DNA from: an uncultured Methanoregulaceae archaeon
GTDB lineage: Archaea; Halobacteriota; Methanomicrobia; Methanomicrobiales; Methanospirillaceae
Assembly: GCA_963737635.1 (NCBI GenBank)
Contig: CAVTTL010000001.1
Span: forward strand, 672,001-736,000
DNA length: 64,000 nt
Reading direction: 5' to 3'
The number at the start of each line of letters is the position of its first letter. Positions within the stretch are counted from its first letter, which is position 1. This document shows, in pieces, positions 5,958 through 25,595 of this stretch. The translations under genes and the position numbers were made by a program. The notes under the pieces are model-generated. The model saw nothing but the letters and a program-made list of their open reading frames with translations, did no database searches and was not told the DNA's origin.

Positions 5958-6282
5958 TCACAATACTAAGTTAGTATTTAAGGTCACCGATATCGCACTC
6001 GTACCTTTTGTCAGAAACGTGCCGAGCTTATCCAGCTGTTGATTAAAGCCCCCTTGCATTCCTTGTACCGCCATACCGGCTTTTGGTCCGGTTGCGTTTA
6101 TCGTGACTTTCAGTTTCAGTTTGGTCTTGCCATTCTCAGGGATCGGGGTAAGTTCGGTCACCTGATCGATTTCTGTGGCTTCTTTTTGTCCCTCAGTCCA
6201 GGCTTTGGCCGCGTATGACAGCTTCGAATTCGTCTCCACCACCGTAAACGTGCCTTCCATCGGCCATCTCGTTCCTTTGTAG
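5958..6282 (-). pseudogene. 5'-truncated SRPBCC/AHSA1-family gene
   Basis: KGTRWPMEGTFTVVE...GKTKLKL...GMQGGFNQQLDKLGTFL is the C-terminal half of an SRPBCC domain; the 5' half is replaced by the array trailer. Confidence 0.6.
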
Positions 6283-9200
6283 TTTAGTCCGATTCAAACG
6301 TAAGCTGGTGAACGTACCCAATCGAGTATGCACCGTATTTCAATCCTAATTTAGTCCGATTCAAACCACCGGTCCACTTCCTCAACCATATGGTAACGGT
6401 TCTTTGATTTCAATCCTAATTTAGTCCGATTCAAACGATAACAAGATCACCGTCCAGCGTATGCGGATTATTCATTTCAATCCTAATTTAGTCCGATTCA
6501 AACGGGCAAAATCCCACATTGCCGATATTTATCCGGGGATTTCAATCCTAATTTAGTCCGATTCAAACGCCCGAAATCGTCCGAGTAGGACATCTGATTG
6601 TTTATTTCAATCCTAATTTAGTCCGATTCAAACTTTCTCTGAGGCATTGATCTGCAGTGCGGTATTGTTATTTCAATCCTAATTTAGTCCGATTCAAACG
6701 TATCTCGCCGAAGGCGTGCTCGTAGGATGCGATCTCAGATTTCAATCCTAATTTAGTCCGATTCAAACCTTATGACCCGGGTCCTGCCCGGGAGGGCCCT
6801 GTTGATTTCAATCCTAATTTAGTCCGATTCAAACTCCAGGATTCCGCCTCACCTCATGGCGATGATTCCCCATTTCAATCCTAATTTAGTCCGATTCAAA
6901 CCCGTCTACCGGACCGTTTGCTCTGGCACCGGGTTTATTTCAATCCTAATTTAGTCCGATTCAAACACGTACCTCCTCTCGCACACGGCAGTTCCGCCGG
7001 GAAATTTCAATCCTAATTTAGTCCGATTCAAACCGTTGGTCGCTGGGCGTTTCCCCGCTGAACGATGTTATTTCAATCCTAATTTAGTCCGATTCAAACA
7101 CGGCACGGTGAATCAGACCTGCATCGGGCCGTTGTGCATTTCAATCCTAATTTAGTCCGATTCAAACTCAAGGATTCAACGATGCAAACGAAATCCTCCA
7201 CACCATTTCAATCCTAATTTAGTCCGATTCAAACCAGCGATGTGCTTCTTGCGTTGGGGGGTATCATCCTATTTCAATCCTAATTTAGTCCGATTCAAAC
7301 TTGAAAAGACAGATTATAAAAAGGACGGTTAACGAAATTTCAATCCTAATTTAGTCCGATTCAAACTGCTTGAGGCTCGCGGGTTTACCTGTGTTCCTCA
7401 AAATTTCAATCCTAATTTAGTCCGATTCAAACGACCATCACTCACCTCCCACGGCTTTCAGGTACGGCATTTCAATCCTAATTTAGTCCGATTCAAACCG
7501 ACGGTCTGGCTTTCTTCAGGATCCGTGATACCGATTTCAATCCTAATTTAGTCCGATTCAAACTGCCCGAAGGTGCCGGGGAAGTCAGCGAAGATACCAT
7601 TTCAATCCTAATTTAGTCCGATTCAAACATCATGGCGCCACGATCGATGAGATCGTCCAGAAGAATTTCAATCCTAATTTAGTCCGATTCAAACCTCAGC
7701 CAGGCGCAGTCCGCATACTCGTACGCGACATTTCAATCCTAATTTAGTCCGATTCAAACCACGAGCGTTTTCACGTCACTGGTGATGCCCGTCGTATTTC
7801 AATCCTAATTTAGTCCGATTCAAACATTCCCCGGGCTCGGCACGACGACGGTGATATTCTCATTTCAATCCTAATTTAGTCCGATTCAAACGTTATCGTG
7901 GTTTTCTCGGTCGCGGTGAACTGTTTGATTTCAATCCTAATTTAGTCCGATTCAAACCCCCGGCGATGGCATCGTGCGACATCAGGAAATATAATTTCAA
8001 TCCTAATTTAGTCCGATTCAAACCGTTGTCCTTGATCTTCTGGCAGTGGACCATGGCTCATTTCAATCCTAATTTAGTCCGATTCAAACCCTCAGTCATC
8101 TGAAGAGAGGACTTCATGGCTTCCCATTTCAATCCTAATTTAGTCCGATTCAAACCGTGGTGAGTCGGCAGCGTCTCCGACCGGGGGCTCGTATTTCAAT
8201 CCTAATTTAGTCCGATTCAAACTTGATTCAGGTCGATCGGAGTGGTGCAGGATATTGTTATTTCAATCCTAATTTAGTCCGATTCAAACGCCGGGTATAT
8301 GCCGAACAATTCACTAGCTACGGAATTTCAATCCTAATTTAGTCCGATTCAAACACCTCGTCGGGATCTGCCCGAAAACCCAGATATTTTATTTCAATCC
8401 TAATTTAGTCCGATTCAAACCCATCGTTCAGACCCCCATGAGGACTGGACGCATCTCATTTCAATCCTAATTTAGTCCGATTCAAACGATGCCGACCTCA
8501 CGGGTGCCAACCTCAAGCGTGCCGACCTCAATTTCAATCCTAATTTAGTCCGATTCAAACGTGGTGGTATTGCACAGCAGGATCCGACGTTACTAAACCC
8601 ATTTCAATCCTAATTTAGTCCGATTCAAACAGAGCAAGGGCAGCACATTCGCTTCCGCCAACATCTATTTCAATCCTAATTTAGTCCGATTCAAACCCGG
8701 ATCGGTTTGCCTGCGAAGGCCTCTGCGAAGGCATTTCAATCCTAATTTAGTCCGATTCAAACACCATGGGATGTCATACACAAGACGTTCTGTTTCACAG
8801 ATTTCAATCCTAATTTAGTCCGATTCAAACTTTATATGGTCGCACCGAAAAAAGAATCTGTGGCACATTTCAATCCTAATTTAGTCCGATTCAAACTTTA
8901 TATGGTCGCACCGAAAAAAGAATCTGTGGCACATTTCAATCCTAATTTAGTCCGATTCAAACACCCGTCACGGCTCAGGCTGTGGCATCTGATGCGACAT
9001 TTCAATCCTAATTTAGTCCGATTCAAACTGGCGAAACCCCAATTCACATCTTCGAGCTTCTTGATCATTTCAATCCTAATTTAGTCCGATTCAAACAGTA
9101 GGTGCCGCTGCGCAACAGGCCGAACAAGCCATATTTCAATCCTAATTTAGTCCGATTCAAACAATGTCTCGGTAATAGCAAAAGGTGCCCCAGTTGATAT

Positions 9201-9463
9201 TTCAATCCTAATTTAGTCCGATTCAAACCGGAGAGCAATGCATGGCACTCTGATTCGAATTTCAATCCTAATTTAGTCCGATTCAAACCGTGCTGTAAAC
9301 GATTCTGCAGTCCGGATTTCAATCCTAATTTAGTCCGATTCAAACTACTGAGATCTTGTCGTGGCAAGTATTTCAATCCTAATTTAGTCCGATTCAAACC
9401 ATACTCTCGCATCCGACCGGATATGCCATAGTTATTTCAATCCTAATTTAGTCCGATTCAAAC
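6270..9463 (-). CRISPR. CRISPR array: 48 perfect 30-bp repeats GTTTGAATCGGACTAAATTAGGATTGAAAT (6337-9463) plus a degenerate trailer repeat (~6270-6299); 48 spacers, mostly 34-40 bp
   Basis: Repeats counted by hand. Minus orientation inferred from the ATTGAAAT 3' handle, the leader next to cas2 and the degenerate repeat at the far end. Confidence 0.98.
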
Positions 9464-9649
9464 ACGCCCCAAAATTGGGCCTTTTTCCCAGCAAAGTATG
9501 GAACTCTGCAGGTAGCGGGCTGAGAGGATGCTGTCGACGACAGACTTTTTCCCAGCAAAGTATGGAACTCTGGTGGTTCGATCATAGATAATCTGGGATC
9601 GGTAATAACGTTTTCACTATAAGAAGATCCCCGACAATCGAGGGAGAGA
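9464..9649 (-). promoter_or_regulatory. CRISPR leader with a possible BRE/TATA-like element (GAAAACGTTATTAC, ~9601-9614)
   Basis: Non-coding gap between the cas2 stop and the first repeat. Confidence 0.7.
9481..9572. repeat. 28-bp perfect direct repeat CTTTTTCCCAGCAAAGTATGGAACTCTG (9481-9508, 9545-9572) flanking a 36-bp unique insert
   Basis: Seen directly; unrelated to the main repeat. Confidence 0.95.
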
Positions 9650-9913
9650 CTAGATAATAGAACACTGATCGGCCTTTTCAATTCCCATATTGTCGATCTT
9701 CACCAGATCCTGCGATCTGATCACATAAAAACGAACCGAATCCTCATCCTTTTTGATAATTTTTTTCAACCCGTATTCGATATCGGCAAACTGCCGGTCA
9801 GTCAGCTCTCCTTCAAACACCGAGTTCTGTACCCGGACAAGGTACCGGCGGAGATACTTGCAGACTTTTGCAACGCGCTCCACCGAGACATCGTAGACAA
9901 TAATCACGTACAT
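9650..9913 (-). CDS. cas2: CRISPR-associated Cas2
   Basis: MYVIIVYDV...RVQNSVFEGELT. Confidence 0.95.
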   Translation of the reverse strand: MYVIIVYDVSVERVAKVCKYLRRYLVRVQNSVFEGELTDRQFADIEYGLKKIIKKDEDSVRFYVIRSQDLVKIDNMGIEKADQCSII

Positions 9914-9920
9914 CAGGGAA

Positions 9921-19252: not shown

Positions 19253-19912
19253 ATGGAATTCCTGCGCGTGGAGATATCGGCGATGACTGCGTCATTCCGG
19301 TATCCCATGTTCGTTGTTTCCTACCAGCCGACCTATCCGGTTCCACCGGTCTCTACACTCTACGGCCTTTTGTCTGCGGCCAAAGGATCAAAGGTTGCTC
19401 TTGATGAAGTCAACATCGGGTATTCGTTCACATCAGAAGGGAAAGGAATCGATCTTGAACGAATCTATGAATATGGCGATGAGAGCGAGAAAAAACCCGT
19501 GCACAGTCTCGGGACAAACATTGTCCAGAGAGAGTTTCTGTATAACTGTTATCTGACGCTTTACCTGTCGGATACCCGGTTTGCAGAATATTTCCAGAAC
19601 CCGGCGTACACCCTGCTCATGGGGAGGCAGACCGATCTGGCATACATAAAATGCATCAGGACCGTGGAACTTGATAAGAGACCGGATGTCGAAATCAATC
19701 ACACCATGGTTCCCTTCACCGGAGAAATTCCCGGTCAGATCATTTCCCTCCCATCCGATTTCACGGATACCGCACAGAGAAAACCCCTGAATGTAAAGAG
19801 TTATGCGATAATCACATCGCCACAACACATTCATGACGGTTTTTTCGATGCGGAAAAAGAGTGTGGGGTATTTATTCATGATTTCACCGGTGCTGGCAAA
19901 GAAAAACGGTGA
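19253..19912 (+). CDS. cas5: Type I-B Cas5
   Basis: TASFRYP...PTYPVPPVSTLYGLLSAA, REFL, LLMGRQTDL. Confidence 0.92.
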   Translation: MEFLRVEISAMTASFRYPMFVVSYQPTYPVPPVSTLYGLLSAAKGSKVALDEVNIGYSFTSEGKGIDLERIYEYGDESEKKPVHSLGTNIVQREFLYNCYLTLYLSDTRFAEYFQNPAYTLLMGRQTDLAYIKCIRTVELDKRPDVEINHTMVPFTGEIPGQIISLPSDFTDTAQRKPLNVKSYAIITSPQHIHDGFFDAEKECGVFIHDFTGAGKEKR

Positions 19913-22082
19913 GACGCTCCGCGATCATACCCAGAACTGTCTTGAACTTTTTGTCTTTTTCAAAGATTTGTTTCCCGGGCTGGATCAGAAATGCGGATAC
20001 CCTGAATTTTATGATGATATCGCCACAGCATTGTTCTTTCATGATTTCGGGAAAGCCTCAACCGGATTTCAGCGCCAGTTCCAGCCAAATAATCCCCAAT
20101 ATCATTATCGTCATGAAATCCTTTCAGTGCCGTTTGTTGAATCACTCCATTGGGGCGATACGGAATTTATTAAAGAACTGGTGCTGACTCATCACAAAAC
20201 CTTGGATCAGCTCAGCGATTATGTTGAACAGGAAGATTCACTTGATCCCGGTTTTGCTGATCGTTTATCTGAGATCAAAGAAAACCTCCCATACCTTAAT
20301 GACCTCATTGAGGATTTTCAACAACTCCCTGCTTGCAGTGAACTACCGCATAAGCCGCAAAAAATGGCCAGCCTCGATGTTTCAAAAGAGTGCTGGGAAA
20401 ATGTTTTACGGACAATGTACCGGGAAAACCGGGAGTCGTCCGATAAAAATGCCCGGTTAAGAAGAATTTTTGGCAAGGGCTTTGTCAACAGCTGCGATTA
20501 CATGGCATCTGCCGGGATCCGTACCGTACTAAAGCCGCTTGCCGATATTCACCCGGTATTTCCGTTTCAAAATCTTACAACCGTTCAGGATATCGTCGGC
20601 AGGACAAAAGGCAATGCGATCATTACTGCGCCGACCGGGTCGGGAAAAACCGAGGCTGCGTTGTTCTGGGCTACCTGCAACCTGGACGCAAACCGTGGAA
20701 ACAGGATATTTTACACTCTTCCCTATACAGCAAGCATCAATGCCATGTACGTCCGTTTGAAAAATGCATTATCTCCTAAGTACGCGGGTGAGGAGACCTG
20801 TGTCTCGCTGATGCACGGTAAAGCCTCGTACTATCTCTGGAAATTTTACGAAGAGACGGAACGCTTCGATTTTGTAAAATCCGTTTCAAAAAGGATTTAC
20901 AGTCCGTACAAAGTGATGACCCCTTTCCAGTCGATAAAACATTTTTTCTCGCTCAAAGGATACGAGATGGGGCTGCTGGAAACGTACCGGGGATTATTCA
21001 TCTTTGATGAGATCCATGCATATGATGCAAAAAATACAGCACTTATCCTTGGCATGACCGATTTTCTGGTCAATACACTTGATGCAAAAGTCCTCGTCAT
21101 GTCTGCAACATTGCCCACCTTCATCCGTTCCCGGTTCGCCGAATGTCTCGATGTGTCCGAAGAGATTCGAATGACAGCTCCTGAACTGTCGAAATATCTT
21201 AGGCACCGGTGCACAATCCTCGATGGAGATATTTTTGATCATATCGATCTGATCAAACAAAATCTCCGTGAAAAGAGAAAAGTCCTCATTGTCTGCAATA
21301 CCGTCAAGCGGGCTCAGGACGTTTATGAATTATTAAAAAATGAGACCGGCAACCGTGCACTTCTCCATGGTAAATATACCTTGAATGATAGGGAGAAAAT
21401 CGAAGGAACACTTGGGGAACGGAAATTGCTGGTCGGCACCCAGACCATCGAAGTCTCACTTGATATCGATTACGATATCTGTTTTACCGAGCCCGCCCCG
21501 ATTGATGCCCTCATCCAGCGGTTCGGACGGGTGAACAGGAGAAAGAACGCGGACGGAACCCCGCAGAAAGGGATTTGCCCGGTCTTCGTGTTCACGAAAG
21601 GATCGGAGAATGATCGCTTTATCTATAATGAACAGAAGGTTTCAAAAACTCTCGATCTCCTGTCCGGCCTCGATCTGCTCCATGAAAATCTCCTGCAGGA
21701 TATCACCGACAAAGTCTATGACGACGGCTTCGGCTCGCAGGAAACAGAGTTCAACGAGACCCAAACCCTCTTCCTGCACCTGATTGACGAACAACAACCC
21801 TACTGTAGTTCGAATCGGAGCGAATCAGATTTTTACCGGCTGTTCAGTGCAGTCGAAGCCGTTCCCTTGTGTTACGCTGCTGTATATGATGAGTGCATAC
21901 AGTCCGGAAGAATTTACGACGCAATGAAGTACGTCGTGCCCCTCACGCTCGGGCAGTACCACAAACTGAAATCAGAAAACCGGGTGAGTGAGAATAAAGA
22001 ACGAATTGTTATCGATGCAAAATATGACATGGAAACAGGACTGCTGATCGGCCAGCGGGATCCGTCAGCGATGACCATGTAA
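19878..22082 (+). CDS. cas3: Cas3 HD nuclease-helicase
   Basis: ETLRDH, HDFGK, APTGSGKT, DEIH, MSAT, QRFGRVNR. Confidence 0.96.
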   Translation: MISPVLAKKNGETLRDHTQNCLELFVFFKDLFPGLDQKCGYPEFYDDIATALFFHDFGKASTGFQRQFQPNNPQYHYRHEILSVPFVESLHWGDTEFIKELVLTHHKTLDQLSDYVEQEDSLDPGFADRLSEIKENLPYLNDLIEDFQQLPACSELPHKPQKMASLDVSKECWENVLRTMYRENRESSDKNARLRRIFGKGFVNSCDYMASAGIRTVLKPLADIHPVFPFQNLTTVQDIVGRTKGNAIITAPTGSGKTEAALFWATCNLDANRGNRIFYTLPYTASINAMYVRLKNALSPKYAGEETCVSLMHGKASYYLWKFYEETERFDFVKSVSKRIYSPYKVMTPFQSIKHFFSLKGYEMGLLETYRGLFIFDEIHAYDAKNTALILGMTDFLVNTLDAKVLVMSATLPTFIRSRFAECLDVSEEIRMTAPELSKYLRHRCTILDGDIFDHIDLIKQNLREKRKVLIVCNTVKRAQDVYELLKNETGNRALLHGKYTLNDREKIEGTLGERKLLVGTQTIEVSLDIDYDICFTEPAPIDALIQRFGRVNRRKNADGTPQKGICPVFVFTKGSENDRFIYNEQKVSKTLDLLSGLDLLHENLLQDITDKVYDDGFGSQETEFNETQTLFLHLIDEQQPYCSSNRSESDFYRLFSAVEAVPLCYAAVYDECIQSGRIYDAMKYVVPLTLGQYHKLKSENRVSENKERIVIDAKYDMETGLLIGQRDPSAMTM

Positions 22083-24145: not shown

Positions 24146-24827
24146 TCATCTCCGCGTCCTTTTCCGGGACCGGAGAGAAGAATCCACCGAATCCATCCAT
24201 GCAAGAGCATCCGGGGTCTCCTCCCAGGCCCGGCGGTTGTCAAGGGCATAGACCACCGCCTCGCTCCTGTCTCCCCGGCTCATATACTCCGGGTGACGGG
24301 CAGGGAGCTTCTTTGTTCCCAGCAGGTACTGCGGGACAAACGGGTTCTCATCAACTGCTATCCGGAGGCAGGCATCCGCTGCCGGGCCCCGGCCCTCCTG
24401 CCGGAATTTCAGGAGCGCCCGGGAATACAGCCAGACAGCGGAACCGTCCTCTTCATACTCCTTAAGGAGATTCCCCAGCGCTTCGTTATCATCCTGTTCC
24501 AGCAGGCAGGTCGCCAGTTCGTACCTGGCCCCCTGGTTTGTCGTTCGGGTTGAGCCCGAGGAGATCGGTAAAAACGTCAATTGCCCGTGACCGCTCGCCC
24601 ATGAAGTGAAGCTGGAGCCCGAGCATGAACCGTGCACGCACTCCCTCCTCAAGAAGCCGGAGGGCCTCATTCTTATCAGGCATCGCTTCCTCAGCGAGAA
24701 TGACATATGCATCCGCACAGTCCCTTGAGATCGAAAGAGCCCGGCGGACCAGCTCAACCCGCTTTTTCCCCCGAGCATCAAACGCATCACAGATGATGTC
24801 CTGAGCCTCCGCGAGCGGCAATCTCAT
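24146..24827 (-). CDS. TPR/ST7-like helical protein (frameshift near 24540; possible internal deletion)
   Basis: ALSISRDCADAYVILAEE, LNPND(N)QGARY, NPFVPQYLLG, EAVVY...AW; split over two ORFs. Confidence 0.6.
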
Positions 24828-25595
24828 CGGTCATCCCTCCCTTTTACCACATTCACAAACCCGAACCCGAAACTGTTCCTCTCGCCAAACCCGGCATCGA
24901 GCCCGAACCCGACAATCTTCCGCTGCATGTCGTTCATATGGCTCCAGGAAAATTCCCAGAGGCTTCCTGCCGCCCCGTAACTCTTCCCGTCAATGATGTA
25001 CCGGGTATGCACGGTTTTTTTGAACAGGAATTCCTGGAAGAGCGGGAGCGTGCCAACCGAGGTCCCATACGCATCGTTGTATTTTTTGATCATGTTTTCT
25101 GAAAGCTGCTTAATGAATGCCTCAAACGAGATCTGCGGACGCCAGTACACGTTACCGGGGCCGGCGTTCATCAGCCGGCACCGCATAGAGATCGTAATTG
25201 TACTCCGGGATACGCAGCAGGATCGGCGTCGCGCAGATGATCCGGACCGGACCCTGGCCGAGTGAGGTCTCAACCGCTCTTACTCCATCGAGCGCAAACG
25301 CGCAGTCACCGATATGAATTTCTTTTTCAGCGTGACTCGTGGTAAGGTACTGCGCGAGGTGTTCAATGATCGTGCTGCCCGGCGATGCGATCATGAAGTG
25401 GCGCACGTCTCCCGTTTTCATATCGCCGAACGGGAAAATGTTCGAAAAACAGAACTGCTTGTAGCCGGGCTTGTCGTGCAGCAGGGGAAAACCCGCTTCC
25501 GCGATAAGTGAATAAACAAAACCCTGGAGCTTGTGGTACTCAAGCGAGACATCCTTCTGATCGTTTTTCGATATGAGCCGGAGCAGGAGGCGCAT
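24824..25595 (-). CDS. cas6: Cas6 endoribonuclease (1-bp frameshift near 25152)
   Basis: HKLQGFVY, FCFSNIFP, ATPILLR, C-terminal GFGERNSFGFG loop; split over ORFs 25152..25595 and 24824..25273. Confidence 0.88.

Follow-up and report, generated by a model that had tools for sequence, protein, structure and literature searches.

We analyzed a stretch of 64,000 nucleotides (nt) from the genome of an uncultured Methanoregulaceae archaeon (assembly GCA_963737635.1, contig CAVTTL010000001.1, positions 672,001 to 736,000), referred to below as the window. It contains a type I-B CRISPR locus with its associated cas genes, and inside the leader of the array lies a unit of two perfect direct copies of a 28-nt sequence around a 36-nt insert. 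Comparison of the sequences with those of relatives indicates that this leader unit was very probably left behind when a Cas1-Cas2 integrase inserted a spacer off target.

Organization of the type I-B locus and its leader

The spacers of the type I-B array (Table 1) are between 24 and 43 nt long, and 22 of the 48 have the modal length of 36 nt. As cas2 ends at position 9650 and the degenerate terminal repeat is found at 6270–6299, the leader comprises positions 9464–9649 and the array is read on the minus strand. The adaptation genes cas2, cas1 and cas4 are located on the same strand and point at the array. All three are full length and 90–97% identical to their counterparts in relatives: Cas1 shares 366 of 378 residues with a G028-like protein, Cas4 shares 160 of 171 residues with that of L059, and Cas2 is identical at 76–80 of 87–93 aligned residues (G028, a genome of the same genus, and L059, a metagenome contig, are introduced below). 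Judged by their sequences, the adaptation genes look intact.

Within the leader, the 28-nt sequence (CTTTTTCCCAGCAAAGTATGGAACTCTG on the plus strand) is present twice with a start-to-start distance of 64 nt, and 17 nt (9464–9480) separate the array-proximal copy from the first repeat in the reading direction of the array. The pair can be extended to 33 nt at 94% identity (9481–9513 and 9545–9577), comprising the 28 perfect positions, 2 mismatches and 3 further matches. A search of the 2.46-Mb genome for the 28-mer with up to three mismatches returned two matches, both of them the leader copies, and none for the reversed pattern used as a control. Compared to the array repeat, the 28-mer has 6–10 identical bases out of 28, depending on orientation and register. 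An earlier note, made from the letters of the window, had described two perfect 28-bp copies around an insert of the usual spacer length, 17 bp from the first true repeat, a 28-mer unrelated to the array repeat and a minus-strand copy ending in GGGAAAAAG; we recovered every one of these features at the same coordinates. The 17 nt at the leader end contain an inverted repeat, GCCC-N7-GGGC, the arms of which are conserved in all four lineages with this leader (this genome, G028, G084 and L059), while its center varies.

A simple tandem duplication was considered as the source of the leader unit and rejected: the insert is 11% identical to the next period, and is thus unlike its flank, and it derives from a distant gene.

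Table 1. Features of the leader unit, the surrounding CRISPR-Cas locus and related elements elsewhere in the genome. Positions are those of the window unless preceded by G000:C1.
Feature	Position	Strand	Basis or remark
17-nt leader end with inverted repeat GCCC-N7-GGGC	9464–9480	-	arms kept in G028, G084, L059
Array-proximal 28-nt copy	9481–9508	-	perfect copy; contiguous with 17-nt leader end as in relatives
36-nt insert, exact copy of own ribonucleotide reductase codons 5–16	9509–9544	-	36/36, E = 1.3e-14; absent from related leaders
Leader-distal 28-nt copy	9545–9572	-	perfect copy; contiguous with conserved upstream leader as in relatives
Remaining leader to cas2 stop codon	9573–9649	-	86–89% identity to G028 and G084
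Type I-B array, 48 perfect 30-nt repeats (6337–9463) and degenerate terminal repeat (6270–6299)	6270–9463	-	
cas2 (9650–9937), cas1 (9921–11057), cas4 (11027–11542)	9650–11542	-	NCBIfam cas2, type I-B Cas1b (415 bits), cas4
Type III-F effector genes (Cas10f, Cas5, Cas11f, Cas7)	12457–16459	-	PADLOC, E = 2e-115, 1e-54, 2e-37, 1e-76
Type I-B interference genes cas8b, cas7, cas5, cas3	16843–22082	+	NCBIfam
cas6, frame-broken in the assembly (two reading frames)	24824–25595	-	TIGR01877 and PF01881 matches in two pieces
Second unit, 30 + 36 + 30 nt, perfect 30-nt copies	G000:C1:1607137–1607232 (L064 3001–3096; outside window)		genome-wide scan
Second CRISPR array, 37-nt repeat	G000:C1:1686857–1688480		adjoining cas1 at 1689536–1690498
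Third Cas1 homologue	G000:C1:1447778–1448662		137 bits

Related leaders contain a single copy of the 28-mer

The leader together with cas2 was searched in 61, and then in 108, genomes of the genus. A homologous leader was identified in 2 of the 107 other genomes, G028 (89% identity) and G084 (86%). In both of these the query halves map to overlapping positions of the subject, there is one 28-mer, and the alignments have a clean gap of 64 columns. Among metagenome contigs, an exact-pattern scan retrieved L058 and L059, and among species-representative genomes it retrieved one contig, L060; each of the three has the 28-mer once. L058 shares the leader and the first spacer with G028 and L060 probably belongs to the same lineage, while L059, with a slightly different repeat and leader, represents a third one. 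The earlier note had suggested that leaders of relatives be compared for a single-copy 28-mer, and this is the state of all three lineages with a homologous leader (G028/L058/L060, G084, and L059): one 28-mer, with exactly 64 nt (28 + 36) missing relative to our sequence.

The two copies have a C (TTTGCTGGG; TTTG[C/T]TGGG on the minus strand) at a position where G028, G084, and L059 all have a T. The duplication therefore copied sequence specific to this lineage.

The insert is identical to the start of the ribonucleotide reductase gene

The 36-nt insert is identical at all 36 positions to the organism's own chromosome at C1:892459–892494 (local blastn, E = 1.3e-14), approximately 211 kb away. 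The donor segment comprises codons 5–16 of an open reading frame (ORF) that starts with MNQPSVVDSILSARYL and forms the 5′ end of the gene for the large subunit of ribonucleotide reductase, carrying the Pfam domains Ribonuc_red_lgN and lgC (N-terminal and barrel domains). None of the 48 array spacers has a match in the own genome at E < 0.001. The reading of the insert as open coding sequence on the minus strand (SVVDSILSARYL) was thus correct, in that the 36 nt are genuine coding sequence taken from another gene. The search for a protospacer in viral and plasmid databases, suggested at the same time, was right in expecting a donor, but the source is the organism's own reductase gene and no virus.

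The reductase segment is 83–95% identical in about 29 other genomes of the genus, and 89% identical in G028 (approximately 4 differences in 35 nt). As insert and donor have no differences, against about four per 35 nt between species, the integration is likely to have taken place well after the split from G028. In the reading direction of the array the donor is flanked by CCA at the 5′ side and CGG at the 3′ side (CCG in the opposite orientation). CCN is given as the protospacer adjacent motif (PAM) of the Clostridioides difficile I-B system, and for that system only, in one report (PMC8406132). The 3′ junction is ambiguous by 1 nt, owing to a C common to donor and 28-mer, and no microhomology is present at the other junction.

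A second unit in a surface-protein gene

The whole genome was scanned for perfect direct repeats with a minimum length of 20 nt and periods of 44–89 nt, and for blocks with at least 24 of 26 matches at periods of 54–79 nt, in which a block of 24–36 nt flanks a non-periodic insert of 28–46 nt. Outside the two CRISPR arrays exactly two units passed, the leader unit and a unit at C1:1607137–1607232. Three Markov-simulated genomes yielded no blocks at all (at least 24 of 26 matches, periods of 54–79), and a chance origin of the units is excluded.

The second unit has exactly the length of the I-B repeat (30 nt) in its copies and the modal spacer length (36 nt) in its insert. Its 30-mer belongs to the signal-peptide-coding start of a gene for a DUF3821 surface protein. 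The insertion of 66 nt keeps the frame length and adds an in-frame TGA, so that the translation reads MRTRLTIALIALVALVLVAVLPLKLWWVNA up to the stop, followed by a duplicated VALVLVAVLP segment and the rest of the DUF3821 protein. The start of the DUF3821 gene is a conserved, multi-copy sequence, and at all 12 homologous sites (10 loci in relatives and 2 own paralogues) it is single-copy and uninterrupted, with the query halves overlapping by 29–30 nt on the subject. The insert is 16% identical to the next period, unlike what a tandem duplication would leave. We found no donor for this insert in the own genome, in 107 genomes of the genus (up to three mismatches), in viral contigs (exact matches), or among plasmids and phages, and Rfam and tRNA scans around the unit gave no matches. 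Units with a duplication of 37 bp, the length of the repeat of the second array, were absent from the genome scan.

A perfect 56-nt direct repeat with a period of 60 nt just upstream of the window (G000:C1:653429–653548) represents an ordinary tandem duplication and has no relation to the CRISPR-like units.

The unit is present in assembled contigs from four studies

Parts of the stretch were found in 20 sequencing runs, and contigs of four of these, from four studies, were compared with positions 8900–10100 of the window. In run X1, record 5 (101 nt) corresponds to 9437–9537 without differences, running from the first repeat through the 17 nt and the first copy into 29 nt of the insert. Record 8 of the same run (6615 nt) and record 17 of run X6 (6102 nt) start within the insert at 9515 and continue through the second copy and the leader into the cas genes, again with zero differences. 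Record 13 of run X4 covers 9508–10100 and continues on its other side into reductase-like sequence, and record 25 of run X8 (166 nt) covers 9527–9692 with eight differences, all between 9638 and 9661 and seven of them matching G028; the latter may come from a recombinant or intermediate strain that also carries the unit. The junction between insert and second copy is thus present in four studies, and more than one sample carries the allele. As expected, the contig graphs break at a 37-mer that leader insert and reductase gene have in common. A joint that skips the 64 nt, corresponding to the allele before integration, was unseen in the contigs of the four runs, which is no evidence of its absence. 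Misassembly, which the earlier note had named as an outcome that would undo its reading, is very unlikely, as the junctions are carried by contigs of four runs from four studies. The other outcome that it had named as refuting, both copies and the insert conserved in all relatives, was not observed either.

Probable off-target integration by Cas1-Cas2 and choice of the site

The leader unit combines a duplication of approximately repeat length, an insert of spacer length, relatives with a single copy, an identifiable donor, and intact adaptation genes, as an integration product would. With a high degree of confidence, we regard both units as off-target Cas1-Cas2 integrations ("neo-CRISPR" units) that became fixed in an uncultured Methanoregula lineage. 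The proposal of the earlier note, an off-target integration that duplicated leader DNA, is thereby supported by the relatives, the donor, the length of the insert and the junctions. Its description of a new repeat being born is fair for the structure, but no sign was seen of expansion or use of the unit. Because the second unit, with exact I-B geometry, interrupts a surface-protein gene, off-target integration can be argued to recur in this organism.

For the leader unit, a 36-nt prespacer would have been cut from the ribonucleotide reductase gene of the cell. Two staggered attacks, 28 bp apart, would then have occurred within the leader at −17/−18 and −45/−46 and not at the borders of the first repeat, with gap filling duplicating the 28 bp. 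The event would postdate the split of the lineage from its known relatives, the allele now being widespread in soil populations. The integrase was most likely the adjacent type I-B Cas1-Cas2(-Cas4) module, as suggested by geometry and position.

Several observations weigh against this interpretation. The duplication in the leader is 28 bp, compared to a repeat of 30 bp. The similarity of the two target sites to the true leader-repeat junction does not rise above background: site 1 is identical to it at 12–13 of 38 positions, a score equaled or bettered by 12–21% of genome positions, and site 2 at 10–11 of 40, equaled or bettered by 40–55%. Of the 12–13 repeat positions that are enriched at off-target sites of Pyrococcus furiosus, both sites match 1–4. 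The genome encodes three Cas1 homologues, one in the I-B module, one next to the second array and one with no repeats in the 3.9-kb locus that surrounds it, and geometry and position are the only grounds for attributing the units to the I-B module. For the array spacers, neither the own genome nor 108 genomes of the genus (two candidates per genome scored) nor a phage collection yielded a target, and no PAM could be inferred. In the genus genomes the array query gave repeat and array matches only, at the same two scored candidates per genome; the phage collection gave a single 31-nt match at 90% (E = 0.9), which we take as noise; and 284 spacers from arrays of relatives, compared with the own genome, reached 18–23 nt at best and had no target there. 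The ancestral state of the leader is known from three lineages only. The evidence on the junctions consists of assembled contigs and no raw reads, the one between first copy and insert is bridged in X1 only, and X1 is possibly the source sample. The second unit is known from the assembly.

The leader unit lies 17 nt from the normal target of the integrase. According to a study on P. furiosus (PMC13748974), integration requires a pyrimidine at −3, and histone-mediated integration requires the leader region from −4 to −19. The pyrimidine at −3 is present only at the leader site, in the orientation of the array. The leader unit begins exactly at −18, the far edge of the last 17 leader nt, which are the counterpart of this −4 to −19 region. 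Closeness to the point where the integrase is recruited is the likelier reason for the choice of this site. With low confidence, we suggest that the GCCC-N7-GGGC element could let the integration complex dock in mirror image, which would explain the start of the unit at the far edge; the geometry does not support this, as a strict ruler with a constant distance from the inverted repeat would predict a start 2 nt further in and a duplication of 30 bp.

Alternative explanations

A mechanism independent of Cas proteins, such as template switching, patch repair that copied 36 nt of the reductase gene, or the enzyme of a mobile element, would fit the dissimilarity of the target sites to the repeat, the duplication of 28 bp instead of 30, and the lack of PAM support for the donor. 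We consider it improbable, as the microhomology at the junctions amounts to none on the left and 1 nt on the right, and a target duplication of 28–30 bp is no product of template switching. It would moreover have to account for two independent units with 36-nt inserts, one with a duplication of exactly 30 bp and one inside the I-B leader. We know of no transposase that leaves duplications of 28–30 bp around a cargo of 36 nt.

A small probability is likewise given to the view that a new CRISPR-like locus was born here and is already in use, either through a guide-like RNA, produced from the array transcript, with which the I-B or a recently gained III-F complex regulates the reductase or through the acceptance of spacers by the pair of 28-mers. 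A distinct version, to which the earlier note had pointed as a mini-array for a type III-like complex or a regulatory RNA, makes the unit a functional source of RNA resembling CRISPR RNA (crRNA), which would regulate or target the reductase gene through the III-F or I-B complex. The type III-like genes next to the array were identified by PADLOC as a type III-F module, and G028 and G084, in which the unit is likewise absent, gave no sign of this module, so that the absence of the unit from relatives is by itself no proof against such a function. Regulatory RNAs that resemble crRNAs have been described in type I-B haloarchaea (PMC10989794), and the unit is situated downstream of the conserved upstream leader and is thus probably transcribed. 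We nevertheless regard a functional mini-array as decidedly unlikely. The 28-mer was not imported as a repeat but belongs to the native leader, where relatives that have no III-F genes carry it once. It differs from the array repeat (6–10 of 28 identities), and its last 8 nt match the last 8 nt of the repeat, which form the tag, at 3 of 8 positions; it is confined to these two copies in the genome, and its predicted folding is not significant (z = −0.39). In the reading direction of the array, the insert has the sense of the reductase messenger RNA and could not pair with it, a DNA-targeting complex guided by a 36/36 match to a housekeeping gene would attack its own cell, and cas6 is frame-broken in the assembly. 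The 28-mers belong to no recognizable repeat family with further copies, and relatives that share the I-B locus do not carry the unit.

The leader unit is therefore probably inert as a guide RNA, its insert being just a passenger in the 5′ portion of the array transcript. Because the 28-mer is leader DNA and not a substrate of Cas6, the self-matching insert is probably no working guide, and the lack of crRNA from the integration site is probably the reason why a self-derived spacer is tolerated.

Little probability remains for a reversed polarity, in which the state with two copies came first and recombination between the 28-mers removed 64 nt from the relatives. Direct repeats are prone to such deletions, and the number of lineages from which the leader is known is small. 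Reversed polarity would however require two or three independent and exact losses, and it does not account for the base that both copies share and all three relatives lack. An insertion before the split should also have diverged, whereas insert and donor differ at 0 of 36 positions, compared to approximately 4 of 35 relative to G028. Even so, the unit would still have been born by integration.

That the leader unit is an assembly artefact, produced by the 37 nt of identity between leader insert and reductase gene, has a negligible probability. In its favor, the shared 37-mer is a branch point of the contig graphs, record 13 of X4 joins reductase-like sequence to the leader side, and several genes of the assembly are frame-broken. 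Against it, X1 record 5 bridges the array side without differences, the long contigs of X1, X6, and X4 and the X8 contig run from the insert through the second copy to the leader or cas genes, and a structured insertion of 64 nt cannot arise from single-base indels.

Comparison with known integration events

The kind of event is known from experiments, and the interest of the present case lies in the completeness of its natural record. In engineered Escherichia coli, off-target integration by the type I-E system creates new repeat-spacer-repeat units (Nivala 2018, via bioRxiv 10.1101/148544, PMC7054753, PMC9456107). These neo-CRISPR units share with ours a spacer-sized insert, a duplication of approximately repeat length at a site that is no repeat, and the new "repeat" that results. 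In contrast to them, the present case is natural and fixed, belongs to an archaeal type I-B system, lies within the leader, has a gene of the cell itself as donor, and is accompanied by pre-integration alleles in relatives. Natural evidence in other species has been called "circumstantial" (bioRxiv 10.1101/148544).

Cas1-Cas2 of P. furiosus carries out full-site integration in vitro at non-CRISPR sites 30–31 bp apart (PMC6698737), and the likeness to our units lies in the paired attacks approximately one repeat length (30 bp) apart in DNA that is no repeat. The repeat families are close, the array repeat of the present genome having the same base at 12 of the 13 enriched repeat positions in P. 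furiosus (PMC6698737). The off-target sites of P. furiosus differ from ours in that they share positionally conserved bases of the repeat, compared to 1–4 of 12–13 here, and in that one of our duplications measures 28 bp.

In the I-B system of Haloarcula hispanica the second cut is measured from motifs that lie centrally within the repeat, and duplications of 29–33 bp occur when these are disturbed (PMC4872114). Given such aberrant sizes, a duplication of 28 bp at a site without the motifs is plausible. The Haloarcula events took place at engineered repeats next to the leader and not in leader DNA, and 28 bp is not among the sizes listed in the abstract of that report. Ectopic acquisition in Streptococcus thermophilus is similar in that integration occurs away from the leader-repeat junction (PMC7999890, PMC5338259). 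Its target is a genuine internal repeat, in contrast to the present units, where DNA that is no repeat was hit and a new repeat was made.

The crRNA-resembling RNAs of haloarchaea likewise come from a single unit of repeat-spacer-repeat type close to cas genes, the spacer of which matches a host gene (PMC10989794). In our case the flanks bear no relation to the repeat, the coding region is matched completely, and relatives lack the unit. The haloarchaeal RNAs are flanked by degenerate copies of the CRISPR repeat and match their targets in part. Keyword searches of an open-access library retrieved no account of off-target integration occurring naturally within the leader of an archaeon, which is weak evidence that none exists.

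How new CRISPR repeats and arrays originate is an open question. One natural archaeal genome here provides two units with a duplicated target, a spacer-sized insert, and an untouched target in relatives, and for one of them the exact donor. They suggest an integrase that is able to hit its own leader, to take up self DNA, and to disrupt genes, as with the stop codon that the second unit introduces into a surface-protein gene. A duplication of repeat length around an insert of spacer length could serve as a survey rule for nascent CRISPRs and for mutations caused by the integrase, and the pre-integration leader of sister strains offers a concrete substrate for studying what positions archaeal Cas1-Cas2.

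Further features of the CRISPR-Cas locus

A block of approximately 4.6 kb between cas4 and cas8b (11623–16459) contains the type III-F set and two small ORFs without a significant family match. In G028, cas8b directly follows cas4, and in G084 one further ORF lies between them; among the three loci compared, the III-F genes are found in this genome alone. The loci of G028 and G084 contain no comparable block, and neither genome yielded the Cas7 gene.

The two pieces of cas6 are overlapping ORFs (25152–25595 and 24824–25273). Like cas6, the donor reductase gene (L022 1489–3035) and the DUF3821 gene (L064 3074–5045) are both distributed over two reading frames; the reductase gene seems to lack a single base within a CCGG context. 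These frame breaks could be either indels of the assembly or real pseudogenes. If cas6 is truly broken, the processing of crRNA would be impaired.

The four leader-proximal, and thus newest, spacers of the array (9229–9433) measure 34, 24, 27, and 30 nt, and spacers below 33 nt are absent among 195 spacers in three related arrays (0/195). The short newest spacers may reflect a recent imprecise trimming of prespacers in this lineage. Spacers 9 and 10 (8831–8866 and 8897–8932) are identical 36-mers, corresponding to a duplication of repeat and spacer within the array. At the other end of the array, the degenerate terminal repeat and the start of an AHSA1-like ORF (5958–6260, minus strand) are 10 nt apart.

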